Assembly (NCBI GenBank): GCA_003650185.1
Contig: QMOF01000001.1
Location: forward strand, 1 to 33,489
Origin: Chloroflexota bacterium
GTDB lineage: Bacteria > Chloroflexota > Dehalococcoidia > UBA2247 > RBG-13-53-26
DNA length: 33,489 bases
Direction of reading: 5' to 3'
Positions 6,792 to 30,792 of the stretch are shown in pieces. A program made the position numbers and the translations under genes. Positions within the stretch are counted from its first letter, which is position 1, and the number at the start of each line of letters is the position of its first letter. Under the pieces are notes generated by a model that saw only the letters and a list, made by a program, of their open reading frames with translations, did not search any database and had not been told where the DNA came from.

Positions 6792-9002
6792 CTAGCTTTT
6801 CACCAGGTCAAAATAGGGTCCGAAATCGGTCTCGGTGCACAGCCTTCCGATCTTCTGATACTCGCGCTTGGTGGCCTTGATCAGGTGCTCCATATTGATC
6901 GTCCGGCCATCAGAAGCAGCCAGGAAGGCAGCTCCCAGGGCTATGTTCTTGATATTGCCGCCAGTTATCTTGAACTGGCTGGCCATGAACTTTAGGTCCA
7001 CACCCTCTGAAACAGGTGCCTCTTTGGGGAACACGCGCTGCCAGATACGGTAGCGGTCCTCCTCTTCAGGAGACGGGAACTCAATGCTGAAATGCATCCG
7101 GCGGGCAAACGCCTCGTCCAGGTTCTTGCGCAAGTTGGTTGCCAGGATGACTATCCCGTCGTACTCCTCCATCTTTTGCAGAAGGTAGGCGATTTCGATA
7201 TTGGCATAGCGATCGTGCGAGTCCCTCACCTCCGAGCGCTTGCCGAAGAGAGCATCTGCCTCATCAAAGAACAGGATGGCATTCGAATCCTGCGCCTCCC
7301 GAAATATCTTGTCCAGGTTTTTCTCGGTCTCACCGATATACTTGCTGACCACCGTGGACAGGTCGATCCTGTAAAGGTCGAGCCCCAGTTCGCCACTTAT
7401 GATTTCCGCAGCCATGGTCTTGCCCGTGCCAGAGGGGCCAGCGAAAAGTACGTTCAGACCCAGGCCCAGCGATAGCTTCTTCTCGAAGCTCCACTCCCCG
7501 TACACAACCTCCTTGTATCGAACATGGTTGGTGATCTCGCGGAGTTGGGCCATCTGGTCGTTGGGCAGGACTATGTCTTCCCAGGTAAACTTGGGCCTTA
7601 TCTTTCGTGCCACGGTGCTGAGTTTCTGATTGGACTGGGCACGGCAGGCTGACTGAAGGTCTTCCATGTCAATGTGAGCCTGTCCGTTCCCTCGGGCCAG
7701 CGCCATATTCCTGGCATTGGCCACTGCGTTACGAATCTGTCCACCGGTCAGGCGGAACTTGCTGGCCAGCGCCTCGAGATCGACACCAGCCCCGCACAGT
7801 CCACTGTCCAGATGCGCTCCCCACAGCTGTCTGCGGGCGCCGAACCCCGGTGTCGGCAGATCGATCTTCACCAGCGGCTTGCCGTCCAGCACACTCTGTG
7901 GCTCCCGGGTGACCCGGCTGCCCAAAAACACCAGTCCCGGCCATCGCTCCGTCCACTCCAGGATGCGTGCGCGCAGAGCCTCGAGATTCCTGTCTTCTTC
8001 CAGGAGCGCCTCGTAGCTGTCCCAGTACACGGCACCCTTCTGTAGCAATGCCTCGCGCCCAATGACTTGCAGGGCAACCTCTATCGGAACCTCCCCCGCC
8101 AGCATCCGGGGAATGTCGACAATGAGCAGCGGCATACCGAACTCGTGGCAAACAGCTTCAGCCGTCATCCGCTTCCCAGCACCACGTGGCCCCTGCAGGA
8201 AGAATGCCACCCCGCTGGTCGGGCTCTTCTCTTGAACCATCCTCTGTATGCGCTCCCTGATGTCCGGAGGCAACAGGACATCCGACAGCCCCACTTGGGG
8301 CTGTCGCAGGCTGGCGAAGGCAGCCAGGCGTACGTCGACCTCGTCCCAACCGAGGAGATAGTCCACCACCCGCTCCTCCACTCTCACGGCCTTCTCCAGG
8401 AGACAGCCACTGTCCGCTGAGCGAGCGTCCACCAGCGAGACCAGGCGATGGGTCAGCAGTTGGCCCTGGGGCAGAAAGATTGCCCTGAGCGCCAGCCTCT
8501 CCTCCGCAGAGCGTGCGATCAGCCGCAGGACAAGGTCAACCGTGGGCTCTTTCCTGGTCACGTCGTCCTGAAGGTAGGCGAAAAGCCTCTGGTACTTGAG
8601 GTCCAGATCAGGCAGCAGGGCAACCACGATAGTGTCGACCTCCGCCGCGGTCAAACCAAACGCCTGCCTCAAATACTCCAGCCTCAACTCAGCCCCGGAT
8701 TCCCGGGCCCTGTCCCTTTGCTCCCTGATGGTCTCCTCAACTGTGCGTAGATATTCGTCAAGCCTCAGCGCCGCCGCGTCCGATGACGCCGACTTAGACG
8801 TCCGACCCTCGTCGGGCTCGGATGAGAGCAGGCTGTCTATCTCCTCCTCAGATATATACAACCCCCGAAACTCGTCCCAGCTCCCCTGGGACCTCTGCCC
8901 ACGGAGTGCAATGACCTCGCGGCGCAGCATCAGGTCTATACGCCTGGCCTCTGCCAGGAGATGGTCCAGACTGCCGTCAAACCCGCTCATCCCTGGCCTC
9001 AT
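6792..9002 (-). CDS. AAA+ ATPase, Afp15-like (CDC48-type, degenerate D1 + active D2)
   Basis: 736 aa. D2 has Walker A GPSGTGKT, Walker B ILFFDEADALF and the second region of homology ATNLRKNLDEAFARR. D1 has a degenerate P-loop (GPRGAGKR) and no clear Walker B. An alternative ATG at 8990 has a better SD (GAGG). Confidence 0.9.
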   Translation of the reverse strand: MRPGMSGFDGSLDHLLAEARRIDLMLRREVIALRGQRSQGSWDEFRGLYISEEEIDSLLSSEPDEGRTSKSASSDAAALRLDEYLRTVEETIREQRDRARESGAELRLEYLRQAFGLTAAEVDTIVVALLPDLDLKYQRLFAYLQDDVTRKEPTVDLVLRLIARSAEERLALRAIFLPQGQLLTHRLVSLVDARSADSGCLLEKAVRVEERVVDYLLGWDEVDVRLAAFASLRQPQVGLSDVLLPPDIRERIQRMVQEKSPTSGVAFFLQGPRGAGKRMTAEAVCHEFGMPLLIVDIPRMLAGEVPIEVALQVIGREALLQKGAVYWDSYEALLEEDRNLEALRARILEWTERWPGLVFLGSRVTREPQSVLDGKPLVKIDLPTPGFGARRQLWGAHLDSGLCGAGVDLEALASKFRLTGGQIRNAVANARNMALARGNGQAHIDMEDLQSACRAQSNQKLSTVARKIRPKFTWEDIVLPNDQMAQLREITNHVRYKEVVYGEWSFEKKLSLGLGLNVLFAGPSGTGKTMAAEIISGELGLDLYRIDLSTVVSKYIGETEKNLDKIFREAQDSNAILFFDEADALFGKRSEVRDSHDRYANIEIAYLLQKMEEYDGIVILATNLRKNLDEAFARRMHFSIEFPSPEEEDRYRIWQRVFPKEAPVSEGVDLKFMASQFKITGGNIKNIALGAAFLAASDGRTINMEHLIKATKREYQKIGRLCTETDFGPYFDLVKS

Positions 9003-9459: not shown

Positions 9460-10509
9460 CTAGATGTGCTCGCCGCTCAACAGCTTCGTGTACAGTCCCA
9501 CCGTGCGGGCATCCGGGGATACCTCCAACTCGGCTTTCATGGTCCTCTCGCACAGGCGGTACCAGTTTATGGCCCGGCTGCGTTGCCCGAGGCGACTGTG
9601 ACAGCACATCAGGCGCTGGTAGGCGTCCTCACGGCACGGGTCCTTGGTCAGTATCTTCTGGCAATACACAATGCAGCCTTCATAGTCATCTTGTTTCATG
9701 GAATAGTCGGCCAGTCGGCCCAATATGGCAAGATAGGTGTCTTTGACAGCCTCGCGCCGCAGCGTGGTCCACTCCTCGTAGAGGTTGTCCTCCATGTAGT
9801 CACCTTTGTAGAGCGACTCAGCCGTCTGATGCTCCTTAATTGCCTCGGCAATCTCTCCCTGCTTCTCCAGGCGCTTTGCGGTCTGCCAATGGTGCTCGAA
9901 CTCGTCAACGTCCAACCACAGATCAACCGCTGGGTTGATCATGTAGTTTCCGTCCTGGCATAAGATCCATGCAAAATCACCGTTCGACCCATGGGCTGCG
10001 CCCAGAGCCTGCCGCAGGGCTCGCGCCGCCGCCTTCAAGTTGTTGTTTGCCAGTGAGGGCTCCCAACCCGGCCACAGGGCCTCCATCAGTATGTCTTTGG
10101 CAACCGGATGGCCACGCTGGCCCACGAGATACTTTAGCAGAGACTTCGCCTTGGTGCTGTGCCACTGGTCAATCTTGATGCAACCGACGCGCACCTGGAA
10201 TCTGCCCAGACAATACACCTCAAGAGTGGGGACAGCAAGAGTTTCGCCAGATGTCATTACGCTGTTACAACCGGAGCGCTGACCGTCAGCAACGATCAAA
10301 CTCCCATTTCGCTCCGCAGCGTTTTTCTCCAGGGCCTCAAGAGCGGTGCGCAGATGCTTACCTGTAGCAGCTTCCCTCTGGCCCAGGTACAAACTGACGT
10401 TGTCTAGTTGCTCGATAGCCCGACGGTAGTCGCGCTGCACCAATCTGAGGATTTCAACAGCGGTCTGGTAGGGGTTAGCCAGCTCGTCGTTTGTGTCCGC
10501 CTTTCGCAC
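9460..10509 (-). CDS. SARP-type transcriptional activator (OmpR-like winged helix + BTAD domain) with ~100-aa N-terminal extension
   Basis: 349 aa. LEVYCLGRFQVRVGC..I..W.S.KAKSLLKYLV....PV.KD.LMEALWP is the wHTH pattern. LWLDVDEFE........G....A......A..LY.GDYMED.LYEEW....RE........L..LA is the BTAD pattern. The C-terminus is TPR-like. Confidence 0.8.
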   Translation of the reverse strand: MRKADTNDELANPYQTAVEILRLVQRDYRRAIEQLDNVSLYLGQREAATGKHLRTALEALEKNAAERNGSLIVADGQRSGCNSVMTSGETLAVPTLEVYCLGRFQVRVGCIKIDQWHSTKAKSLLKYLVGQRGHPVAKDILMEALWPGWEPSLANNNLKAAARALRQALGAAHGSNGDFAWILCQDGNYMINPAVDLWLDVDEFEHHWQTAKRLEKQGEIAEAIKEHQTAESLYKGDYMEDNLYEEWTTLRREAVKDTYLAILGRLADYSMKQDDYEGCIVYCQKILTKDPCREDAYQRLMCCHSRLGQRSRAINWYRLCERTMKAELEVSPDARTVGLYTKLLSGEHI

Positions 10510-11189: not shown

Positions 11190-11684
11190 CTAAGGGAAAG
11201 GTGGTCGATACTTGATGTCAAGCTCCTTCAAGGCGCTGTTGCGCAGCTTTGTCAGCGACTTCCAGAGCGCTTCCCGCTCTTCTTTTGAGAGAGACGACAT
11301 GATCTTGCTTATTATCCGTCTCTTCTCTCTCGAACGATGGTAGAATTCTTCGCCTTTCTCCGTGACCTCAATCCTGACGAGGTTCTTCCTATCCAGGTCT
11401 CGCACCCTCCTGACCAGCCCCTGGGCCTCCATGCGGTCCAACAGTCCCGATATCGTGTGCGGCTCCCGAAACAGCACGCGCGATATCTTTGCTGGCGTCA
11501 CCGGCCCATCCAGGCTCTTGACGAAGAACAACACCGTAGCCTTCGCCATGGTGATGTCGGCTTGTCTGAGCTCATGCTCCCTGGCCCGCGCTATTGCGTC
11601 TCGGGCCTGGTGCAGCAGGGCCCACAGCCTGAAGTCCTCGTCAGCGTCTACAGCCGTCACTCGCGATTTGGGCATGATCGGCAT
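11190..11684 (-). CDS. MarR family transcriptional regulator
   Basis: 164 aa. The winged-helix pattern is ...ITMAKATVLFFVKSLDGPVTPAKISRVLFREPHTISGLLDRMEAQGLVRRVRDLDRKNLVRIEVTEKGEE. Confidence 0.85.
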   Translation of the reverse strand: MPIMPKSRVTAVDADEDFRLWALLHQARDAIARAREHELRQADITMAKATVLFFVKSLDGPVTPAKISRVLFREPHTISGLLDRMEAQGLVRRVRDLDRKNLVRIEVTEKGEEFYHRSREKRRIISKIMSSLSKEEREALWKSLTKLRNSALKELDIKYRPPFP

Positions 11685-14980: not shown

Positions 14981-15259
14981 CTACTCAGACCCATTCCCTT
15001 TCTCTTTGTCACTGGCGGCGTTTGCTTCCATCTTCTCCTCGCCACCCTCACGGCCGGGCGCAGAGCCTGCCGCACTGTTCTTGGCCCTGCTGTCGGTAAC
15101 ATAGAAGCCCGGCCCTTTGAAGATTATCGGCACGGGCGAGAAGACGCGCCGCCCGTCGCCCCCGCATTTGGGGCAGCGGGCCCCAGAATTCTCCCCGAAA
15201 GCCTTCCTCACCTCAAAGCCGAGTGAACATGATTCGCAGAAATACTCATATATCGGCAA
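14981..15259 (-). CDS. FmdB-family zinc-ribbon protein (CxxC_CxxC_SSSS)
   Basis: The conserved N-terminus (M)[10 protein letters not shown]....F.......ARCPKCGG is present. The TTG at 15259 has GGAGGTG 5 nt upstream, so the track start at 15277 is probably too long. Confidence 0.8.
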
Positions 15260-15286
15260 CTTGCACCTCCCAAGCAACCGAGCGAA

Positions 15287-15313
15287 TTAGCACTCGAACC
15301 TCTAGAGTGCTAA
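15287..15313 (-). promoter_or_regulatory. CIRCE operator (HrcA binding site)
   Basis: A perfect match to the consensus TTAGCACTC-N9-GAGTGCTAA: TTAGCACTC (15287-15295), gaacctcta, GAGTGCTAA (15305-15313). It lies 27 nt upstream of the fmdB-like start. Confidence 0.9.
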
Positions 15314-15315
15314 TT

Positions 15316-15344
15316 ATTTTAGCGAAAACACCGCGCCCCTGCAA
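15316..15344 (-). promoter_or_regulatory. sigma-70-type promoter of the fmdB-like/dnaJ unit
   Basis: On the minus strand: TTGCAG (15339-15344), 17 nt, TAAAAT (15316-15321), 2 nt, then CIRCE. This is the classic promoter-CIRCE arrangement. Confidence 0.6.
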
Positions 15345-15428
15345 GCACCTGGGACTGCTTTCACCACCGCGAAAAACGTGGCTGACAGGCAGCATCAGCA
15401 CCAGAGCAGCCACGCACGGACCAGTCAC

Positions 15429-15761
15429 CTAATCCGTTACTCTCTCGTCGACCAGGAAAGCCACCGTCTTGCTGGTGTCCAGAAACGTCTGCTCATCCTC
15501 GCGGATCGCCTTTCCCGCCTCCGTTTCCAGCGCCTCTACGATGGCCTGGGCATCTTCCATGGTGTCAAACCAGAACTCTGTGATGCAGTCGAAACCCGGT
15601 TCCTCACCACTGAGAGACATGACGATGTGGTTTCGCACGTACTTCTTGATGGTGGGAAAACATCTCAACGCCAGCGGTGCATGCACCTCCTCGTAATGCC
15701 GGACGAACTCCTCGTGCGAGATCGACTCTTTCCTCTTGAGCAAGGCCACCGACTTGATCAC
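15429..15761 (-). CDS. EthD domain protein
   Basis: (M)IKSVALLKRKESISHEEFVRHYEEVHAPL is the typical EthD-family N-terminus. The GTG at 15761 is preceded by AAGGGGG. The track start at 15782 adds 7 aa. Confidence 0.7.
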   Translation of the reverse strand: MIKSVALLKRKESISHEEFVRHYEEVHAPLALRCFPTIKKYVRNHIVMSLSGEEPGFDCITEFWFDTMEDAQAIVEALETEAGKAIREDEQTFLDTSKTVAFLVDERVTD

Positions 15762-15794
15762 ATTCACCCCCTTATGATTCAACTCTTGCCCGGG

Positions 15795-17729
15795 CTATAT
15801 CTTCAACGCTACCCTGGCAGCCTCCAGCGTGGCAGCCGCTGCATGGCGCGGCTCCACGCAGTCGCCAATCCGGTAGACTTCCGGAGCGAGCCCTTCCACT
15901 GCATCAGCCAGTCCGCTGTCCGGCACCGCGCCGATCGCCAGCACCACTGTATCGGCCAGCAGGTGGAACGTCTCGCCTCCGAAGTCCAGCACCACGCCGG
16001 CCCCGGTGATCTCCCGCACAGAGGTATCCAGATACATGGGTATGCGCAAAGCAATCAGCCGCCTCACCAGCGCCATGTAGGTGAAGTGCTCTTCGGGGCC
16101 TTTCCGACCCCCGAGCCTGCCACGGCTGACCAGGGTCACCTCTCGCCCCTGCTCCGCCAGCCAGGCAGCCAACTCCATTCCCAGGAAGCGTCCCCCGATC
16201 ACCGCAACCTTCTTTCCTACATCAACCCGGCCCAGGATAACGTCATTAGCCTGAACGACACGGCCACCCGAAGCCACAGGCACGCCCAACCCCTGGGGTA
16301 CTGCACCGGTGGCCAGCACCAGGGCATCCGGATTCTCTGCCAGAACCACCTCTCTGGTGACCTCGCTGCCCAGAAACACGCGCACCCCGTGTTCGCCCAG
16401 GCACCTCCGCAGATAGTCGACAAAGGCAGCATAACCTTCTTTCCCCGGCATGGCACAGGCAATCTTCCACTGACCACCCAGGTCGGTATCTCGCTCGTGG
16501 AGCGACACCCGGTGCCCCCGCTGCGCCAGCAGTGCAGCGGCTTGCATGCCAGCCGGACCACCTCCAACCACCATCACCTTCTTCGGCGACGGCGCTGCTA
16601 CAAGCGCGCTCCTCGCCTCTCGGTATAGAAACGGGTTGACGGTGCAGGACGCCGGGCTACCGAGCTGTCGCTCACAGTTGTTGCAGTATATGCACCGTCG
16701 CACATGGTCTACACGTCCCTGGCGCAGCTTGTTGGGCAATTCTGGATCGGCCAGAAGGGGGCGCCCCAGGGCAACGAAGTCTGCCCTGCCGCTACCGATT
16801 ATCTGCTCTGCCAGCTCCGCGTCTATTTTCCCTGCTACTATCACCGGTATGCGCACCGCCTTCTTCACCGCTTCGGCCAGCGACACCATCGGCCCCTTGG
16901 GAAAGAGATAGCACGGTATGTTCAGCGGAGACCAGCATTCGATGCCTCCGGAAACGCTGACGGCGTCGGCCCCGGCCGCCTCCAGGATGCGCGCCTGAAG
17001 CACAGCTTCGTCAACGGTGAGGCCGCCTTCCACATCATCGGTGCCGTTCATCCTGACGGAGACCGGGAACCCCGGACCGACCTTGTCCCTCATTCGCTGC
17101 ACAATCCTGACAGCGAAGCGGGCCCTCTTCTCCACGGTGCCACCGTAAGCATCGTTCCTTCTGTTGGTGACCGGGGACAGAAAGGTGCTTACCAGGCACC
17201 CGTGGCAGGCATGCAACTCGACCGCGTCTGCTCCCGCTTCACTGGCGCGACGTGCCGCTTCAGAGAAGTCCTCTACATAGCGCTCGATGTCGCTTTCGTC
17301 GACCTCCCTGTACGGCTCGTCGCCCACCATCCACGGCATTGCCGACGGTACCATGATGGGAACGCCTTGACGCATCGATTTCGGGACTATGCTGGCCAGA
17401 AGGCCATAGTGCACCAACTGGATAGAGACCTTGGCCCCGTGCTCATGAATGGTCTCCACGAGTTTGCGCAGCCCAGGGAGGAAGCCATCGTCGTAGATGG
17501 CCAGGTTGAAGGGGGCGGCGCTTTCGCGGCTGACCGCCGCGATCTGAGTGGTTATCAGCGCTACCCCGCCACGTGCCCTGGCACGGTAATAGTCCAGCAG
17601 CCTGTCGGTGACATTGCCCTGTTCGTCAGCCAGGAAATTGCCCATGGCTGACATGACCAGCCTGTTCTCAAGCCGCAGCCCGCCTATGCGGCCTGGCTGG
17701 AACAGTGAGTGGAATTTGGTCATTCTCAT
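15795..17729 (-). CDS. NADH:flavin oxidoreductase / 2,4-dienoyl-CoA reductase-like (OYE TIM barrel + 4Fe-4S linker + FAD/NAD(P) domain)
   Basis: 644 aa. The OYE-like N-terminus is LFQPGRIGGLRLENRLVMSAMG...HACHGCLVSTFLSP..N.R.D.YGG. A Cys cluster (CIYCNNC....C) and the Rossmann motif VMVVGGGPAGMQAA are present. Confidence 0.85.
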   Translation of the reverse strand: MRMTKFHSLFQPGRIGGLRLENRLVMSAMGNFLADEQGNVTDRLLDYYRARARGGVALITTQIAAVSRESAAPFNLAIYDDGFLPGLRKLVETIHEHGAKVSIQLVHYGLLASIVPKSMRQGVPIMVPSAMPWMVGDEPYREVDESDIERYVEDFSEAARRASEAGADAVELHACHGCLVSTFLSPVTNRRNDAYGGTVEKRARFAVRIVQRMRDKVGPGFPVSVRMNGTDDVEGGLTVDEAVLQARILEAAGADAVSVSGGIECWSPLNIPCYLFPKGPMVSLAEAVKKAVRIPVIVAGKIDAELAEQIIGSGRADFVALGRPLLADPELPNKLRQGRVDHVRRCIYCNNCERQLGSPASCTVNPFLYREARSALVAAPSPKKVMVVGGGPAGMQAAALLAQRGHRVSLHERDTDLGGQWKIACAMPGKEGYAAFVDYLRRCLGEHGVRVFLGSEVTREVVLAENPDALVLATGAVPQGLGVPVASGGRVVQANDVILGRVDVGKKVAVIGGRFLGMELAAWLAEQGREVTLVSRGRLGGRKGPEEHFTYMALVRRLIALRIPMYLDTSVREITGAGVVLDFGGETFHLLADTVVLAIGAVPDSGLADAVEGLAPEVYRIGDCVEPRHAAAATLEAARVALKI

Positions 17730-22999: not shown

Positions 23000-23043
23000 T
23001 ACAGGCAGACGTCCCACTTTATACAGCCTAAGGAGGTGTTTTG

Positions 23044-23448
23044 ATGGTTCAGCCTGCCCCAGCCTCGCCCTTGTTTTGGAGATTCAATCCAGAGATATAC
23101 CAGCGGATGGGGATGAAGTGCTCCGACTGCGGTCACATTACCTACCCGAGACGCAAGATCTGTCCCGAGTGTGGCAGCTTCAACGTCAAGGAACACCAGC
23201 TTTCCAAAACAGGAAAAGTGCACACCTTTTGCATCAACTGGACACCACCACCGAACCTGGAACCGCCCATTGTTAACGTGATTGTGGACCTTGACGGCGG
23301 CGGCAGGTATCAAGGGCTCATAACGGAAGTGGCTAACCCCGAGGATGTGACTATAGGCACCAAGGTGGAGATGGTCCTTAGGAAGGTAATGACTGACAGA
23401 GGGCTGAACATCTACGGCTACAAGTTCAGACTCGTAGAGGAGGGCTAG
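23044..23448 (+). CDS. DUF35 zinc-ribbon/OB-fold protein (thiolase-associated)
   Basis: 134 aa. The rubredoxin-like ribbon CSDCGHITYPRRKICPECGS is followed by an OB-fold segment (GKVHTFCI...VNVIVDLDGG.RYQGLI). AGGAGG lies 8 nt upstream of ATG 23044. Confidence 0.85.
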   Translation: MVQPAPASPLFWRFNPEIYQRMGMKCSDCGHITYPRRKICPECGSFNVKEHQLSKTGKVHTFCINWTPPPNLEPPIVNVIVDLDGGGRYQGLITEVANPEDVTIGTKVEMVLRKVMTDRGLNIYGYKFRLVEEG

Positions 23449-23449
23449 T

Positions 23450-24646
23450 ATGAGAGGTAAGGTCGCTATCATAGGCGTCGGCATGATTCCCTTCGGGGAG
23501 CTCTTTGAAATGGGCCTGGAGGAAATGGTCCAGCAAGCTTACATCAATTGCCTCAACAGCGTTGATAAGGGGATTTCTACCAAGGATATCAAAGCAGCCT
23601 GGTTCGGGCAGTGGAGCGGTGGCGGTATGATTGGGCAGGGCGCCTTGTGCGGAGCCTCTCTGGCAACCATGATAGGGAATCGGGAAATACCCATAACCAG
23701 GACCGAAAACGGGTGTCCCACCGGGAGCGATGCTTTCAGGAATGCATGCCTCGGGGTTGCCTCCGGCGTTTACGACGTCGTCCTGGCCATGGGGGCTGAG
23801 AAGATGCGGGACAAGCCGGGAGTGGAGTCGCTCATAGCTGCCGGCGGGGGTGGCGGGGGCATCCTGGGTCTACATCCCTCCTGGATGCTGGGCATGGGTG
23901 GACCAGTCTTGCAGGCGCTCTATGCTACCAGGCAGATGCACGAGCTGGGCTACACCATGGAGGACTACGCCAGGGTCGCCGTCAAGAACCATCACAACGG
24001 AGTCGCCTGCCCGTATGCCCACTATCGATTTGAGGTAACTATGGAGCGGGTGCTCAACAGCCCCATTGTCTGCTGGCCGTTGCACCTGCTCGACTGCTGC
24101 CCTCAGACCGACGGCGCTGCCTGCGCCATCGTCTGCCGGGCCGACATAGCCAAGAGCTTCACCGACAAGCCTGTCTACGTCCTGGGTAGCAACACCGGCC
24201 TCGATCACAAGAACATGTGGGACAAGCACAGCTTCGTTGAAATGCTTTCTACAGTCAGGGCGGCCAGAGGGGCCTTCGAGATGGCCGGCATCAAGCCGGA
24301 TGACGTAGACTTCGCTGAGATCCACGATTGTTTCACCAACACGGAGCTGATGAACCTCGAGGACATCGGCTTCTGCAAGAAGGGCGAAGCCGCCAATCTG
24401 CTCAGGGAAGGCTACTGGAACCGTGACGGCGCGAAGCCCATAAACCCAAGTGGAGGGCTAAAGGCGCACGGGCATCCCATAGCTGCCACCGGCATCGGGC
24501 AGATATGCGAAAACTACTGGCAATTGCGAGAAGAGGTAGAACCGGAAAGACAGGTCAAGCTAAAGAATGGTATCGCCCTGAGCCACAACGTGGGCGGGGA
24601 TGCATTCGGCGTTTCGTGCGTCACCATCCTCAGCCGTTCCCTATAA
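23450..24646 (+). CDS. thiolase-like protein (archaeal/SCP-x type acetyl-CoA C-acyltransferase family)
   Basis: 398 aa. VAIIGVGMIPFGE, the nucleophile region ENGCPTGSDAF, DVVLAMGAEKM, C-terminal NPSGGLKAHGHPIAATG and HNVGG are present. Confidence 0.85.
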   Translation: MRGKVAIIGVGMIPFGELFEMGLEEMVQQAYINCLNSVDKGISTKDIKAAWFGQWSGGGMIGQGALCGASLATMIGNREIPITRTENGCPTGSDAFRNACLGVASGVYDVVLAMGAEKMRDKPGVESLIAAGGGGGGILGLHPSWMLGMGGPVLQALYATRQMHELGYTMEDYARVAVKNHHNGVACPYAHYRFEVTMERVLNSPIVCWPLHLLDCCPQTDGAACAIVCRADIAKSFTDKPVYVLGSNTGLDHKNMWDKHSFVEMLSTVRAARGAFEMAGIKPDDVDFAEIHDCFTNTELMNLEDIGFCKKGEAANLLREGYWNRDGAKPINPSGGLKAHGHPIAATGIGQICENYWQLREEVEPERQVKLKNGIALSHNVGGDAFGVSCVTILSRSL

Positions 24647-24664
24647 AACGCAAAGGAGGCAAAT

Positions 24665-25687
24665 ATGGCTGGTATTATCGGCTATGGAGTCTACGTTCCC
24701 CGGTATAGATTGAAGCAGGCAGATGCAGCCATCCCGTGGGGAGGCTTCGGAATGGGTGAGAAGTCAGTCTGCGGCTGGGATGAGGACATCATCAGCATGG
24801 CTGCCGAGGCACTCGAGAACGCCGTCAACCATTCCGGCGTTAACGCATCTGACATCGGCGCCCTCTACCTTGGCACTGCTTCTTCGCCATATATTGAACA
24901 ACATGTGGCCCCAATTCTGGCAGAGACGCTGGGCCTGTCCCCCGAAGTGTCTGTGTTGGACTACTGCGGTTCTATTAACGCGGTCGCCGCAGCTTTGCTC
25001 TCCTGCCTGGACGCTATCGAGGCCAAGAGGATCAAGACAGGCATCGTCGTCGGGACCGAGAACCGGCGGGTGGGGCCGGGTACTGAAGGCGAGGTCAGTT
25101 TCGGCGCCGCCGCAGTGGCCCTAGTAATTGGAGACTCAGACACCATCGCCGATATCGAGGGTCGGCAGACGTACTCCACCCTGTTCTATGACAGGTGGCG
25201 GGCGGCAAAAGACAGCTGGGTGTCCAACTACTTTGACTACAGATTCGCGCGCGAATACGGATACCAGAGGCATGTCAGCGGAGCCTGCAAGGGCTTGTTG
25301 GAGAACCTCCAGCGGAAAGGCGATGATTACGACCACGTAGTCTTCCACCAGCCGGACGGCAGGCTTCCCGCACTGGCTGCCCGTGACCTCAAGATCAATC
25401 CCCAGAAGCTGGCTCCAGACCTGACCGGGGCGTTGGGTGACCTGGGCGGCTGCTCTCCTTTCGTTTCTCTGGCCGGCATCCTGGACAACGCCAAGCCTGG
25501 GGCCAAGGTACTTGTCTGCTCTTACGGCTCGGGCCGTAGCGACGCCTTTAGCTTGGTGGTGGGCAACCAGATAGAGAAGAAGAGGGGCAACGGCATTCCT
25601 TTGGAAAAGTACATGGCACGGAAGGCGTATCTCGATTACCCCACTTACCTCCGCCTGACCAACAACCTGGTACGCGCGCCTTACTAG
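24665..25687 (+). CDS. HMG-CoA synthase-like condensing-enzyme family protein (archaeal short type), atypical active site
   Basis: 340 aa. GIIGYGVYVPRYRLK....A..WG....GEKSV.GWDEDIISMA.EA is present. Cys is present (DYCGSINAVAAAL) and so is His (VVFHQPDGRLP). However, the GSES.PY motif reads GTASSPY, so the catalytic Glu position is Ala (codon 24878-24880). Confidence 0.8.
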   Translation: MAGIIGYGVYVPRYRLKQADAAIPWGGFGMGEKSVCGWDEDIISMAAEALENAVNHSGVNASDIGALYLGTASSPYIEQHVAPILAETLGLSPEVSVLDYCGSINAVAAALLSCLDAIEAKRIKTGIVVGTENRRVGPGTEGEVSFGAAAVALVIGDSDTIADIEGRQTYSTLFYDRWRAAKDSWVSNYFDYRFAREYGYQRHVSGACKGLLENLQRKGDDYDHVVFHQPDGRLPALAARDLKINPQKLAPDLTGALGDLGGCSPFVSLAGILDNAKPGAKVLVCSYGSGRSDAFSLVVGNQIEKKRGNGIPLEKYMARKAYLDYPTYLRLTNNLVRAPY

Positions 25688-26785: not shown

Positions 26786-26849
26786 TACCTTTCCTCGTAC
26801 GATCTAACCCTGCCGTCGCTCCAGAGAACCATCCGTTCGTGCCCAGCTT

Positions 26850-26878
26850 TTGCAATAGCAGCACAGTACTGATATTAT
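26850..26878 (+). promoter_or_regulatory. candidate promoter of the mutase operon (divergent from meaB)
   Basis: TTGCAA (26850-26855), 17 nt, TATTAT (26873-26878), followed by AAT. This is the only AT-rich patch of the intergenic region. Confidence 0.5.
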
Positions 26879-26973: not shown

Positions 26974-28575
26974 ATGGCTGGTAGCGATGAGGGTAAAGTC
27001 ACCACGGCATCCGGTGTCCCGGTAAAGGACATCTACACGCCTGATGACATCAAGCACATAGACTACGAGAGAGATATCGGGATACCAGGTAAGCCTCCCT
27101 TCACTCGGGGCGTCTACGCTACCATGTACAGGGGACAGCTATGGACTATCAGGCGCCTGACCGGGTTCAACACACCTGAGGACACCAACCGTCGCTATCG
27201 GGAAGAGTACGAGTTGGGGCAGACAGGCTTCTCCATAGCCCCTGACATCTCAACAGCCGTCGGCATGGACGCCGACGACCCCAGGGTATCGGCCGACGTC
27301 GGCCATGCTGGTGTGCCCATATACTCCGTTGAGGATATGGAGACGGTCTTCAACGGTCTGCCTATAGAGAAATGCTCCACCTTTCTGGCTGACAGGGTAG
27401 GGGGACTGCTAACGCCAGCCTACTTCCTCATGGCCGAGAAGCGGGGTATACCGCTCAACCAGGTCAGGGGCACCACCGCCAACGATCTTTGCACCTGGAG
27501 CTCGATTGACCTGTTCAACCAGCCGCCGCCCGATGGCTTCTTGCGGTATGCTGTGGACCTCATCGAGTGGTGTACCCAGAACGCGCCGCGGTGGTATCCG
27601 GTATCCTTCAACTCTTACAACCCGCGGGATAACGGCATAAACGCCGTCCAGGAGATGGGCATGCTCATGGCGACTGTCATCCAGTACGTCGAGGAAGCGA
27701 AACGCCGTGGGCGGGTGCCTCTCGACAGGTTCGTCCGGCGCTTCGCTTTCAACATGGCAATGCACAGCGACTTCTTCGAAGAAATAGCCAAACTCCGGGC
27801 CTCACGCCGCCTGCTGCAGAGGATTATGAAGGAAAGGTACGGCATCGAAGACCCCGCCTGTGGTCAGCTTCGTGTCCACGTCCAGAGTTCAGGCTCAACC
27901 CATACCCACCAGGAACCTTTGAACAACCTGGTCCGCATTGCCTACCAGGTTATGGCTGGCGTCCTGGGTGGGGCACAGTCGATACACGCCAACGGGTATG
28001 ATGAAGCAGTCTGCCTTCCCACCGATCAGGCAATGCTGCTGGCCATCAGAACGGAACAAATCGTCGCCCTGGAGACGAATGTCACCAACACGGTTGACCC
28101 ACTGGGTGGCTCGTACTACATCGAGAGCCTCACGAAAGAACTGGAAGAGCGCGCCTGGGACTATATCAAGAAGATCGAGGACCAAGGTGGCATGGCCGAA
28201 GCCATCAAGTCCGGCTGGATTCATAGGGAATACAAGAAGGCCATAATCGAGCATGAGCGCAAGCTGGCGTCCGGCGAGATCACAGTTGTAGGAGTGAACA
28301 AGTTTCGCCTGGAAAAGGAACCCTATGAGGTACCCATCTTCAGGCCTGACCCCAGGTCGCCTGACATCCTGATCGAAAGGGTCAAGCGCCTTCGCGAGCA
28401 AAGGGACGATGCGGAGGTCGCCCGAGCGCTAAAGAATCTTGAGGCGGTTGTTCGCAGCGAGGAGAATACTTTCCCTGCCATAATGGAAGCTGTCAAAGCT
28501 CATGTCACCCCGGGCGAGATGGCGAGAATCCAGCTCGAAGTCTATGGACCATGGACCTACCCCATCGGGGGATAG
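26974..28575 (+). CDS. B12-dependent acyl-CoA mutase large (substrate-binding TIM-barrel) subunit, divergent subclass, paralogue 1
   Basis: AAGGAGG lies 6 nt upstream of ATG 26974, so the track start at 26914 is too long. PFTRGVYATMYRGQLWTIRR..GF, VQSSG and TNVTNTVDPLGGSYYIESLT are family motifs. The canonical substrate residues are replaced (see findings). Confidence 0.85.
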   Translation: MAGSDEGKVTTASGVPVKDIYTPDDIKHIDYERDIGIPGKPPFTRGVYATMYRGQLWTIRRLTGFNTPEDTNRRYREEYELGQTGFSIAPDISTAVGMDADDPRVSADVGHAGVPIYSVEDMETVFNGLPIEKCSTFLADRVGGLLTPAYFLMAEKRGIPLNQVRGTTANDLCTWSSIDLFNQPPPDGFLRYAVDLIEWCTQNAPRWYPVSFNSYNPRDNGINAVQEMGMLMATVIQYVEEAKRRGRVPLDRFVRRFAFNMAMHSDFFEEIAKLRASRRLLQRIMKERYGIEDPACGQLRVHVQSSGSTHTHQEPLNNLVRIAYQVMAGVLGGAQSIHANGYDEAVCLPTDQAMLLAIRTEQIVALETNVTNTVDPLGGSYYIESLTKELEERAWDYIKKIEDQGGMAEAIKSGWIHREYKKAIIEHERKLASGEITVVGVNKFRLEKEPYEVPIFRPDPRSPDILIERVKRLREQRDDAEVARALKNLEAVVRSEENTFPAIMEAVKAHVTPGEMARIQLEVYGPWTYPIGG

Positions 28576-28593
28576 AAAAAAGGAGAGCGGGCT

Positions 28594-29007
28594 ATGGACA
28601 AGAACAAAGTCAAGATATTGATGGCTAAACCGGGTCTGGAGGGGCATTGGCGTGGGATTATTGCAGTCAGTAGCGCGTTCAGGGATGCTGGTTTCGAGGT
28701 AATATACGGCGGCCATATGCTCCCTGCGGAGATCGCTGCCACGGCTGTCCAGGAAGACGTTGACATAGTCGGCTTGAGCATCCTGTCATCCAACTACATG
28801 CGCCTGGTATCCGAGACGGTAAAGGAACTGAAGGACCGCGGCAGGGGCGATGTCATGATCCTGCTCGGTGGAATCATATACAAGGAAGACTTCCCCGCCC
28901 TTAAAGAAATGGGGGTGGCTGAGATCTTCCTCCCCGGGACTCCACTCGACGAGATCGTCGAATTCGTCCGTCGCAATACCTCCGAGGCTTCCCAGAAGGT
29001 AAGTTAG
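28594..29007 (+). CDS. cobalamin-binding small subunit of acyl-CoA mutase
   Basis: 137 aa. The Rossmann-like B12-binding domain has KILMAKPGLEGHWRG (a variant of DxHxxG), VGLSILSS and ILLGGII. Confidence 0.85.
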   Translation: MDKNKVKILMAKPGLEGHWRGIIAVSSAFRDAGFEVIYGGHMLPAEIAATAVQEDVDIVGLSILSSNYMRLVSETVKELKDRGRGDVMILLGGIIYKEDFPALKEMGVAEIFLPGTPLDEIVEFVRRNTSEASQKVS

Positions 29008-29053
29008 ACACACCAGCGCAGCGCCCCTAAGTCTGCCAGCGAAGGAGACCGCA

Positions 29054-30649
29054 ATGGCTGATGGACAGCAGGTTTGTTCGGCATCGGGCATCCCGATAAA
29101 GAATATCTACACCCCAGAGGACACCAAAGACATAGACTACGATAGGGACCTTGGCCTTGCAGGGCAACCCCCTTTCACCCGTGGAGTATACCCTACCATG
29201 TACCGCGGCAGACTGTGGACCATCAGGCGGTTGAGCGGGTTTAACACCCCCGAGGAGACTAACAAGCTCTACAGGGAAGAATACGAGCTGGGCCAGACGG
29301 GCTTCTCGGTAGCCCCGGACGTCTCTACGGTAGTCGGGCTCGACGCCGATGACCCCTGGGTCACTGCCGATATCGGGCACGCGGGCGTGCCCATGTCTTC
29401 CCTTGAAGATGTCCAGGCCACCTTTGAAGGTCTGCCGATAGAGAAGGTTTCGACGTACATGGCAGACAGGTGTGGCGCAGTCAACACAGCCATGTACTTT
29501 GTCATGGCCGAAGAGAGAGGCCTGGACCTCCAGGAGATCAGGGGCACCACGGCGAACGACCTGCTTAGCTGGAGCGTTCCCGCTCTGATCAATCAGCCAC
29601 CACCTCAGGCATACGTCAGGTATGCCGTTGACTTCATCGAGTGGTGCACCGAGCACGCTCCAAAGTGGAACCCGGTCTCGTTCGACTCCTACAACGCCAG
29701 GGACTGCGGTCTGAACGCAGTCCAGGAGCTGGGCATGCTCATGGCCACCGCTATTCAGTATATTGAGGAGGAGAAGAAAAGGGGCAGAGTGTCCCTTGAC
29801 CGGTTCGTCAGGCGCTTTTCTTTCAACACAGGTCTGCACAACGACTTCTTCGAGGAGATTGCCAAGCTGCGCGCCGCCCGCCGGATGTGGCACAGGGTTA
29901 TCCGGGAGAGGTATGGTATCGAAGACCCGCGCTGCGCCTTGTTCCGAGTGCACGTTCAGAGCTCCGGCTCGACGCACACCACCCAGGAACCGCTGAACAA
30001 CGTGATCCGAATCGCCTACCAAGTGCTGGCCGGCGTTCTCGGCGGGGCCCAGTCAATACATGCCAACGGCTACGATGAGGGTGTCTGTCTGCCCACTGAC
30101 CAGTCCATGCTCCTGTCCATCAGAACGGAGCAGATAGCTGCCCTGGAGACAAATGTGACCAACACCATAGACCCTGTTGGCGGTTCGTACTACGTCGAAT
30201 CATTGACCAACCAGATCGAGGAACGTGCCTGGCAGTACGTGCAGAAGATCGAGGATATGGGCGGCATGGCGGAGGCTATAGCCTGCGGATGGGTCCACAG
30301 GGAGTACATGGACGCTACGATTGAGCATGAACGCAGGCTGGCGTCGGGGGACATTACCATTGTGGGCGTGAACAAGTTCCGTATGGAGAAGGAACCATAT
30401 GAGGTGCCCATCTTCCGATGGGACCCTGAGGCACCTGACAAACAGATCGAGAGGCTCAAGAAGTTCAAGAAGAACCGCGATCAGTCCCGGGTTAACCAGG
30501 CGCTGCAGGAACTTGAGAGAGTCACCCGCAGCGGGGAGAACGTCTACCCGGCAGTTATGGAGGCGGTCAGGGCTGGGGGCACATTGGGGGAGATAGCCGG
30601 CGTGCAGCACAAGGTCTATGGCGTCTGGCACCATCCCATAGGAGTGTAG
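29054..30649 (+). CDS. B12-dependent acyl-CoA mutase large subunit, divergent subclass, paralogue 2
   Basis: 531 aa, collinear with paralogue 1 over the full length (high identity by eye). It carries the same non-canonical active-site substitutions. GAAGGAG SD. Confidence 0.85.
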   Translation: MADGQQVCSASGIPIKNIYTPEDTKDIDYDRDLGLAGQPPFTRGVYPTMYRGRLWTIRRLSGFNTPEETNKLYREEYELGQTGFSVAPDVSTVVGLDADDPWVTADIGHAGVPMSSLEDVQATFEGLPIEKVSTYMADRCGAVNTAMYFVMAEERGLDLQEIRGTTANDLLSWSVPALINQPPPQAYVRYAVDFIEWCTEHAPKWNPVSFDSYNARDCGLNAVQELGMLMATAIQYIEEEKKRGRVSLDRFVRRFSFNTGLHNDFFEEIAKLRAARRMWHRVIRERYGIEDPRCALFRVHVQSSGSTHTTQEPLNNVIRIAYQVLAGVLGGAQSIHANGYDEGVCLPTDQSMLLSIRTEQIAALETNVTNTIDPVGGSYYVESLTNQIEERAWQYVQKIEDMGGMAEAIACGWVHREYMDATIEHERRLASGDITIVGVNKFRMEKEPYEVPIFRWDPEAPDKQIERLKKFKKNRDQSRVNQALQELERVTRSGENVYPAVMEAVRAGGTLGEIAGVQHKVYGVWHHPIGV

Positions 30650-30684: not shown

Positions 30685-30725
30685 ACAGCCGGTGAACCGC
30701 GCTGACCACCTGGTTCACCGGCTGT
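30685..30725 (+). terminator. terminator-like hairpin after the mutase operon
   Basis: A 14-bp perfect stem: ACAGCCGGTGAACC (30685-30698), a 13-nt loop, GGTTCACCGGCTGT (30712-30725). No U tract follows. Confidence 0.5.
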
Positions 30726-30763
30726 TCAGAGAGTCGGGCGTGTTGTGCCATGCGGCATTCAGC

Positions 30764-30792
30764 TTGACACACGGCAGGGGCTAATCTATACT
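30764..30792 (+). promoter_or_regulatory. near-consensus sigma-70 promoter
   Basis: TTGACA (30764-30769), exactly 17 nt, TATACT (30787-30792). The next start codon on this strand is 31217. Confidence 0.6.

Follow-up and report, generated by a model that had tools for sequence, protein, structure and literature searches.

The first 33,489 nucleotides of contig QMOF01000001.1 from a Chloroflexota bacterium (hereafter the window, meaning this whole analysed stretch) encode two paralogous large subunits of acyl-coenzyme A (acyl-CoA) mutases that depend on coenzyme B12, which we call L1 and L2, with a single B12-binding small subunit, S, between them. L1 and L2 are probably competent large subunits of two separate adenosylcobalamin (AdoCbl)-dependent acyl-CoA (CoA-carbonyl) mutases that would act on substrates other than methylmalonyl-CoA, isobutyryl-CoA or 2-hydroxyisobutyryl-CoA of the (S) type. 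This assignment relies on the replacement of the known specificity residues in both proteins, the conservation of the remaining active site, and the separate occurrence of L1- and L2-type genes in related genomes.

The three genes follow each other on the forward strand (Table 1). Because each has a start-proximal ribosome-binding site (AAGGAGG 6 nt upstream of L1, AAGGAG for S, and GAAGGAG for L2) and the spacers measure only 18 nt (L1-S) and 46 nt (S-L2), the arrangement fits a single transcript. On longer contigs from this organism, the publicly predicted gene begins at the same L1 start. A preliminary description of this DNA had assigned one B12-binding subunit to both large subunits, and the window indeed contains only one S gene; neither tblastn nor DNA alignment recovered a remnant of a second one after L2. 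A gene for a MeaB-type chaperone is divergent from L1, and MeaB adjoins L1 orthologs in 15 related loci. Within the MeaB/L1 gap, a consensus scan gave one promoter-like site on each strand: the minus-strand site matches at 11/12 positions, and the plus-strand site matches at 9/12 and has an extended TG. No cobalamin or other riboswitch was found in the window.

Family membership and substrate pocket of L1 and L2

Both large subunits match PF01642 over their full length (L1, 6e-160 and 533.6 bits; L2, 6e-166 and 553.4 bits; cut-off, 22.1) and pass the family-level model TIGR00641 (509.8 and 547.3 bits; cut-off, 303.8). They are 70% identical to each other across 529 residues, with no gap. An AlphaFold2 model of L1 (predicted local distance difference test score [pLDDT], 79.6) superimposes on HcmA of the 2-hydroxyisobutyryl-CoA mutase (HCM) from Aquincola tertiaricarbonis (4r3u) with a template modeling (TM) score of 0.91 and on methylmalonyl-CoA mutases (MCMs) with a score of 0.90, at a sequence identity to HcmA and human MCM of 34 to 38%. 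HcmA is also the best solved match by sequence (1.6e-112, 36 to 38% identity). The residues that contact CoA and the adenosyl group, namely, PFTRG, WT(I/M)R, Tyr243, Gln330, Asn366, and Glu370, are invariant or nearly so in L1, L2, and 28 relatives. Pfam, TIGR00641, and the fold match thus agree on membership in the family of acyl-CoA mutases that depend on B12, as had been proposed from the motifs. S scores 142.7 bits against TIGR00640 (cut-off, 57.45) and matches PF02310, as expected of a B12-binding subunit, while a PF03308 match and its position beside the mutases identify the chaperone as a MeaB/MMAA protein.

The ratio of nonsynonymous to synonymous substitution rates against orthologs in related metagenome-assembled genomes (MAGs), where it could be measured given saturated synonymous sites, was 0.04 to 0.12 for L1, 0.06 to 0.10 for S, and 0.06 for L2 (against its ortholog in the related locus L001). 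All three genes are therefore under purifying selection and are functional genes rather than decaying copies.

Few residues contact the acid moiety of the substrate in these mutases, according to background reviews (PMC2847961). We aligned L1 and L2 with HMMER to human MCM, HcmA (4r3u), and Propionibacterium shermanii MutB, whose numbering is used throughout. None of these alignments has an indel at Tyr89, across Gln197 to Arg207, or at His244, and the register at Tyr89 is fixed by PDB entry 5req, a Y89F mutant whose difference from 1req falls precisely in the aligned column. The pocket reads Leu89/Ala116/Ala197/Asp207/Tyr243/Asn244 in L1 and Leu89/Ala116/Ala197/Ala207/Tyr243/Asn244 in L2. The replacements noticed earlier by eye are thus upheld in both proteins: Tyr89 is Leu, Gln197 is Ala, position 207 carries no Arg, and His244 is Asn. 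We rejected the explanation that the canonical residues are merely shifted, given the lack of indels at the critical positions against three references, and no displaced Tyr, Arg, or His was seen near the pocket positions in the primary sequence. Two further substitutes were rejected as well. The invariant Arg at position 244+2 also occurs in archaeal MCM and isobutyryl-CoA mutase (ICM) sequences that keep Arg207 or Gln207, and the His of the SGSTHT motif, considered as a replacement for His244, is Leu in several subclades with Asn244.

The two large subunits had been described as differing mostly around the putative pocket, which is only partly the case. Residues ~131 to 190, which include the 197/207 positions, are 50 to 60% identical, but the N terminus and residues ~461 to 530 are equally or more divergent.

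These columns separate L1 and L2 from each class to which we aligned them. MCM (P. shermanii MutB, human MMUT) shares the fold, the CoA and adenosyl motifs, and the MeaB/MMAA chaperone; in contrast, L1 and L2 replace all four substrate-binding or catalytic residues (Tyr89, Gln197, Arg207, and His244), have their B12 domain on a separate protein, and miss the MCM equivalog model NF006944 (426.2 and 455.7 bits against a cut-off of 876). With both the Tyr89 and the Arg207 clamps replaced and this model missed, methylmalonyl-CoA is disfavored as the substrate, as first suspected from the missing Arg. ICM and IcmF, which also have pivalyl-CoA activity, resemble L1 and L2 in their hydrophobic position 89 and in acting on a noncarboxylated substrate, which is also what we predict here; yet the ICM signature is FAQQYHQN (Phe89, Gln207, His244), whereas L1 and L2 have LAA[D/A]YNQN, and the IcmF equivalog model NF045497 is missed by far (170 and 184 bits; cut-off, 1500). 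HcmAB likewise has separate large- and small-subunit genes, a MeaB-type chaperone, and the conserved Tyr243, Gln330, and Asn366. However, HcmA has Ile90, Asp117, Gln197, Gln207, and His244, for which the counterparts in L1 and L2 are Leu, Ala, Ala, Asp or Ala, and Asn; the Ala in the Asp117 column is also found in MCM. The small-subunit motif differs too, being DGHDRG in Hcm and EGHWRG in S.

The (R)-specific 2-hydroxyisobutyryl-CoA mutase RcmAB (RCM), known from Kyrpidia tusciae and Bacillus massiliosenegalensis, with an RcmAB-like enzyme in Desulfococcus biacutus, was compared through published residues only. It shares with L1 and L2 a nonpolar residue at the HcmA Asp117 position and a plausible link to (R)-3-hydroxyacyl-CoA metabolism, and it differs in having Ile95 and Val122 where the L1/L2 clade has Leu and Ala. 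RCM reportedly has Val (V122) at the Asp117 position of HcmA. PMC11599936 lists I95, V122, V172, H174, Y252, and F296 as first-shell residues of RCM. Overall, no characterized specificity corresponding to this clade was found by comparison with MCM, ICM, and HCM, the sequences of RcmA, Ecm, and pivalyl-CoA mutase (PCM) not having been aligned directly. L1 and L2 would operate as two-subunit mutases in the manner of HCM or ICM, and they likely belong to a specificity class that has yet to be characterized.

The small subunit deviates in parallel with the pocket. In S, the DxHxxG motif reads E-G-H-W-R-G (within GLEGHWRG): the cobalt-ligating His and the Gly are kept, the Asp is conservatively replaced by Glu, and Trp takes the place of the canonical Asp after the His. 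The Glu occurs within the L1/L2 subclade, and the His is always kept. Across the surveyed loci L001 to L062, small subunits that partner large subunits with Asn244 mostly have [D/E]GHWRG (or DAHWRG or DFHTWG) rather than the canonical DGHDRG. The sequences thus point to [D/E]GHWRG as a covarying signature of the whole Asn244 branch.

Relatives of L1 and L2 and the question of one enzyme or two

The 120 protein clusters nearest to L1 and L2, at 51 to 91% identity, come almost entirely from uncultured Chloroflexi/Dehalococcoidia, and all are publicly labeled "methylmalonyl-CoA mutase." The product of a neighboring gene has an exact match in a Chloroflexi MAG (locus tag DRI39_00175). Neither a closer solved or named relative nor a characterized member of the clade was found, and a full-text literature search returned no paper on it. 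A scan of species-representative genomes yielded 79 loci, all from MAGs or single draft assemblies. In a neighbor-joining tree built without support values, and by their pocket signatures, sequences with Asn244 (rarely Pro or Ser) and no Arg207 form one clade, sister to a group that includes MCM (YAQRYH), ICM (FAQQYH), and HcmA. The clade occurs in Dehalococcoidia, Thermodesulfobacteriota, Nitrospinota, Actinomycetota, and Firmicutes (Peptococcaceae SCADC and Desulfovirgula), as well as in "Candidatus Syntrophoarchaeum butanivorans" and an Asgard MAG, and residues 89, 197, and 207 vary widely across its subclades. L1 orthologs (17 loci, LAA[D/E]YN) and L2 orthologs (23 genes, LAA[N/S/A]YN) form sister lineages, both confined to Dehalococcoidia. 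The same data set contains genuine ICM-like genes with Phe/Gln/His; the archaeal ones have split subunits and a MeaB neighbor.

We searched 1.84 billion cluster representatives (E ≤ 1e-30) and found 2014 mutase-like clusters, the best representative being 48% identical to L1. The Arg207 column proved alignment dependent, and only the His244 column was used. Of the 150 nearest representatives (clusters at 50% identity), those long enough to align comprise 63 with His there, 24 with Asn, 14 with Asp, and 9 with Gln, the remainder having other residues, so that ~58% lack His. No RCM-like pattern (I95/V122/V172/H174) was recognized among the 150, RcmA being sought by these published residues. The representatives (P0182 to P0331) point to a large uncharacterized diversity of mutase-like proteins, among them one from the cultured Streptomyces sp. 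AV19 (P0211). Noncanonical mutase-like proteins would thus seem to be abundant and essentially unstudied, although some may be inactive MutA-like chains.

The preliminary description had offered two explanations for the large-small-large layout, two related substrates or a heteromeric enzyme. In the latter, L1, L2, and S would form a single enzyme like P. shermanii MutA/MutB, with one chain structural or regulatory. The L1-S-L2 order with a single S, the tight spacing, and the ribosome-binding site at every gene are compatible with this idea, and the same order recurs in L001. However, both chains keep all invariant catalytic, CoA-binding, and adenosyl-binding residues, and the inactive MutA-type chain matches L1 and L2 only weakly (1e-28). 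Gene distribution is also at odds with a heteromer. L2 stands beside L1 only in the window, L001, and L004, whereas at least 11 of the 17 L1-type loci carry L1-S without L2, and 20 of the 23 L2-type genes lie in loci without L1. Elsewhere, L2 orthologs have their own S and different neighborhoods, and L004, a close relative of the window, carries a second S after L2. Since genes of the L1 and L2 types are mostly found apart and then have a small subunit of their own, we favor two enzymes, and with them the proposal of two related substrates; a heteromer seems very unlikely. The large-small-large arrangement is best explained by two independent mutase systems having come to lie next to each other, and the S shared by L1 and L2 in the window and L001 as a derived state, a second S having later been lost in the lineage of the window.

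A second, highly divergent mutase pair (~35% identity) frequently lies ahead of L2 orthologs, for example in L020 (5254-7523), L028 (1723-3864), L034 (6789-8937), and L039 (7710-9923). This pair has its own small subunit with a DSH[Y/F][R/K]G motif, its pocket columns read A/V-S-I-x-Y-D, and in it Gln330 is replaced by Arg and Asn366 by Ala or Ser.

Gene neighborhood of the mutase locus

Table 1. Features of the mutase locus and its surroundings, with positions in the window
Feature	Position	Strand	Basis or remark
DUF35 (OB/zinc-ribbon) protein, thiolase, 3-hydroxy-3-methylglutaryl-CoA (HMG-CoA)-synthase-like condensing enzyme	23041-25687	+	Pfam; upstream, convergent with MeaB
MeaB-type G-protein chaperone, 330 aa	25793-26785	-	PF03308 at 4e-88, 295.4 bits
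Divergent promoter-like sites in the MeaB/L1 gap	26849-26878 (+), 26901-26874 (-)		Consensus pattern match only
L1, acyl-CoA mutase large (substrate-binding TIM-barrel) subunit, 533 aa	26974-28575	+	PF01642
S, B12-binding small subunit, 137 aa	28594-29007	+	PF02310, TIGR00640
L2, large subunit paralogous to L1, 531 aa	29054-30649	+	PF01642
Perfect 14-bp inverted repeat, ACAGCCGGTGAACC ... GGTTCACCGGCTGT	30685-30726	+	36 nt past the L2 stop
Promoter-like TTGACA-17-TATACT	30764-30792	+	11/12 consensus match; starts a separate downstream operon
CdhB-like protein, divergent homolog of the acetyl-CoA decarbonylase/synthase (ACDS) epsilon subunit, 154 aa	31217-31681	+	PDB 3cf4_G, 5e-8; synteny with L1 orthologs
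Lineage-restricted protein with a PD-(D/E)XK-like fold, 189 aa	31697-32266	+	AlphaFold2 and Foldseek
MFE-2-type short-chain dehydrogenase/reductase (SDR), putative (3R)-hydroxyacyl-CoA dehydrogenase	32320-33222	+	Best PDB match 2et6, 9e-88

The trio upstream of MeaB, in which NF003274 is matched at 282.6 bits (cut-off, 244), is found only in the closest relatives (the window, L004, and L023); distant paralogs of it lie near other Asn244 mutases in L012, L015, L051, and L056 (Dehalococcoidia, Desulfovirgula, and a deltaproteobacterial MAG). Some L1 loci that lack the trio have genes for a dephospho-CoA kinase (CoaE) and two NUDIX hydrolases just upstream of MeaB (L085, 3268-5727; L086, 3342-5578).

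Past L2, the inverted repeat is followed by no T-tract and is not conserved in L001 or L004; it may mark a transcript end or a protein-binding site. The promoter of the downstream operon (TTGACAC-N17-TATACT), whose spacer is partly conserved, recurs in 11 related loci (the window, L001, L004, L005, L008 to L010, L014, L022, L085, and L086), 167 to 464 nt upstream of the cdhB-like start. In the window, the leader of ~450 nt that extends to 31216 shows short conserved patches only and no Rfam match; with only the promoter conserved, we do not propose a structured RNA there.

The cdhB-like/SDR operon stands beside every complete L1 locus. The CdhB-like protein scores 38.6 bits against TIGR00315, below the cut-off of 101. 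The 189-residue protein that follows has no Pfam or NCBIfam match and only 61 clusters in the protein collection; its family is confined to this lineage, with one divergent copy placed in an unrelated context. Its AlphaFold2 model (pLDDT, 82.5) best matches AF2093 (2ph7; Foldseek, 2e-7), and we set it aside as a clue to the substrate, given that a PD-(D/E)XK-like fold (AF2093, XisH) is uninformative. The SDR, which has Pfam and NCBIfam matches, is conserved at 74 to 82% next to L1 orthologs. Beyond the end of the window, the operon continues on another contig of the same organism (L080, 11742-15927) with CdhC (the acetyl-CoA synthase beta subunit), a 71-residue zinc-ribbon protein, and a CdhA-like protein of ~830 residues. 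CdhC keeps the Cys-Gly-Cys motif along with every cysteine of the A-cluster. Alignment of the CdhA-like protein with the ACDS alpha subunit spans its whole length, but the His of GHN is Asp (GDD) and a Cys-Cys pair is G[A/S], both conserved in 10 orthologs, while the other four Cys are kept. We take these positions (one His and five Cys) to be the C-cluster ligands, as in carbon monoxide dehydrogenase (CODH) II. It is unusual to find an SDR within a cdh operon, as it is for a CODH-like subunit to lack two of its cluster ligands. L015 encodes a second CdhC paralog (15242-16621, minus strand; 62% identical) at a distance of 3.6 kb from an L1-type paralog without a small subunit beside it; genes for a family III CoA-transferase and an ADP-forming acyl-CoA synthetase are present in L015 as well.

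Other L1- and L2-type paralogs have as neighbors acyl-CoA dehydrogenases, enoyl-CoA hydratase, SDRs, electron transfer flavoprotein (ETF), old yellow enzyme (OYE)-type and NMO-type reductases, ADP-forming acyl-CoA synthetases, and a family III CoA-transferase, while distant members of the Asn244 clade are flanked by acyl-CoA dehydrogenases or B12-uptake genes. Such mutases flanked by acyl-CoA dehydrogenases were seen in anaerobic alkane-degrading cultures or habitats, namely, in "Ca. Syntrophoarchaeum butanivorans" (L066, 9899-12006), Peptococcaceae SCADC (L053 and L054), and tar-biofilm Thermodesulfobacteriota (L048 and L050). Most of the loci behind these comparisons of context belong to a single bacterial class, so inherited synteny may account for the patterns.

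On the minus strand of the window lie genes for an OYE/2,4-dienoyl-CoA-reductase-like flavoenzyme of the BaiCD/FadH type (15795-17729) and a MarR regulator (11190-11684); both gene types also flank L2 orthologs in L024, L025, and L057. Further away, an extracellular contractile injection system (eCIS) cluster (1704-9002, minus strand) encodes a T4 gp19-like tube protein, a tail sheath, Pvc16_N, an eCIS core domain protein, and a WHD-AAA ATPase, and is followed by a BTAD-family regulator at 9460-10509.

Proposed reaction, candidate substrates, and significance

If L1 and L2 are two separate mutases, the single S would be cotranscribed with both and used by both. MeaB, a GTPase, would load AdoCbl onto S and guard the cofactor, with the His of S as the lower ligand. 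Binding of the acyl-CoA in the TIM barrel would trigger Co-C homolysis, after which the 5'-deoxyadenosyl radical would abstract a hydrogen from the substrate, the thioester carbonyl would migrate to the neighboring carbon, and the hydrogen would be returned. His244 is proposed to donate a proton in MCM; Asn244 could form a hydrogen bond to the migrating carbonyl or polarize it but would be unable to protonate it. The exchange of the Tyr89 and Arg207 clamps for Leu and Asp/Glu (L1 lineage) or Asn/Ser/Ala (L2 lineage), together with Ala at 197, would make the pocket roomier. Because the clamps are lost, Gln197 is Ala, and L1 has an acidic residue at the position of the MCM Arg, we infer that the substrates are noncarboxylated acyl-CoAs; that of L1 may carry a hydrogen bond donor or a cationic group, such as a hydroxy or amino group. 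The products would most likely enter a β-oxidation-like route through (3R)-hydroxyacyl-CoA dehydrogenase and thiolase to acetyl-CoA. The most economical hypothetical pathway would convert a tertiary or branched (hydroxy)acyl-CoA to an (R)-3-hydroxyacyl-CoA, followed by the MFE-2-type dehydrogenase and thiolase, and the adjacent acetyl-CoA synthase could process the resulting acetyl-CoA. HMG-CoA was rejected as a mutase substrate, since its C3 carries no hydrogen to abstract.

Several points weigh against this proposal. Replacement of His244 in MCM cuts the rate by orders of magnitude, so activity with Asn244 is assumed. First-shell positions beyond the classical four also matter; PMC11599936, for instance, counts residues 172 and 174 as first-shell in the enzyme of B. 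massiliosenegalensis. An SDR lies within 3 kb of the large subunit in 18 of 74 non-His and 1 of 17 His-type cases, a weak difference between phylogenetically nonindependent sets. The SDR and the mutases apparently form separate transcription units, with the inverted repeat and the conserved promoter between them, and in L002 and L003, MeaB lies between the mutases and the SDR. Their adjacency could be synteny inherited within one lineage.

The most specific form of the proposal is that L1 is a functional analog of RCM with different residues, interconverting 2-hydroxy-2-methylacyl-CoA and (R)-3-hydroxyacyl-CoA, with the product degraded by the neighboring dehydrogenase and thiolase. The closeness of HcmA among solved structures speaks for it, as do the invariable Asp/Glu at 207 in the L1 lineage, the nonpolar Ala where HcmA has Asp117, the MFE-2-type (3R)-hydroxyacyl-CoA dehydrogenase conserved beside L1, and the thiolase and DUF35 protein upstream. 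D. biacutus, moreover, pairs its RcmAB-like mutase with a 3-hydroxybutyryl-CoA dehydrogenase (PMC7176365). Yet the HCM-defining Ile90 and Asp117 are lacking, the RCM residue pattern was not found among the 150 representatives nearest to L1, the SDR belongs to a different transcription unit, and neither a ligase for the CoA ester of 2-hydroxyisobutyric acid (2-HIBA) nor a 2-hydroxyacyl-CoA lyase was seen in the loci. We regard this form as rather doubtful. The idea that L1, L2, or both act on aliphatic branched acyl-CoAs as ICM and PCM do (2-methyl-branched to linear, or of the pivalyl-to-isovaleryl type), thereby unblocking β-oxidation of branched or hydrocarbon-derived acids, appears about equally unlikely. 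Leu89 and Ala197 are hydrophobic, and L2 has Ala207; genes for acyl-CoA dehydrogenase, ETF, OYE-type reductases, and acyl-CoA synthetases are present in L2-type loci; distant Asn244 members come from hydrocarbon-degrading consortia (SCADC, the tar-biofilm MAG, and "Ca. Syntrophoarchaeum"); and such rearrangements are among the steps postulated for the anaerobic breakdown of hydrocarbons and pivalate (PMC2847961). However, the ICM signature Phe/Gln/His is lacking even though genuine ICM-like genes occur in the same data set, and a substrate that is aliphatic throughout would fit poorly with the acidic residue conserved in the L1 lineage.

That L1 and L2 are ordinary MCMs which bind the carboxylate in some other way, as the public annotation of all members and the invariant Arg at 244+2 might suggest, is scarcely credible. 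All four diagnostic residues are replaced, the equivalog scores reach only about half the cut-off, L1 has an acidic residue where the carboxylate would sit, and the 244+2 Arg accompanies Arg207 or Gln207 in archaeal MCM/ICM sequences, so it is not compensating. At the ambitious end, the Asn244 branch with its [D/E]GHWRG small subunits might constitute a third major class of mutases, in which the charge-reversed pocket of L1 rearranges a hydroxy- or amino-acyl-CoA and is wired to the SDR/CdhC/CODH-like operon as a new route from branched C4/C5 compounds to acetyl-CoA in subsurface Dehalococcoidia. We consider this a long shot. Candidate pairs for L1 would then be 2-hydroxy-2-methylacyl-CoA/(R)-3-hydroxyacyl-CoA or 3-aminoisobutyryl-CoA/4-aminobutyryl-CoA, and, if true, it would add an undescribed route to the acetyl-CoA (Wood-Ljungdahl) node.

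To our knowledge, only a handful of acyl-CoA mutase substrate specificities have been described, and each has opened a pathway or biotechnological route, such as the ethylmalonyl-CoA pathway, methyl tert-butyl ether (MTBE)/2-HIBA metabolism, and pivalate degradation. The apparent abundance of non-His mutases tempers the surprise of any single case and raises the value of characterizing one. The widespread, anaerobe-associated Asn244 branch has other residues in place of the catalytic His and the two specificity clamps, and the label "methylmalonyl-CoA mutase" probably introduces the wrong propionate/succinate metabolism into reconstructions of Dehalococcoidia and other subsurface organisms. 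The branch is a natural test of how far the rearrangement needs His244, and it offers candidates for rearrangements long postulated in the anaerobic degradation of branched and hydrocarbon-derived acids.

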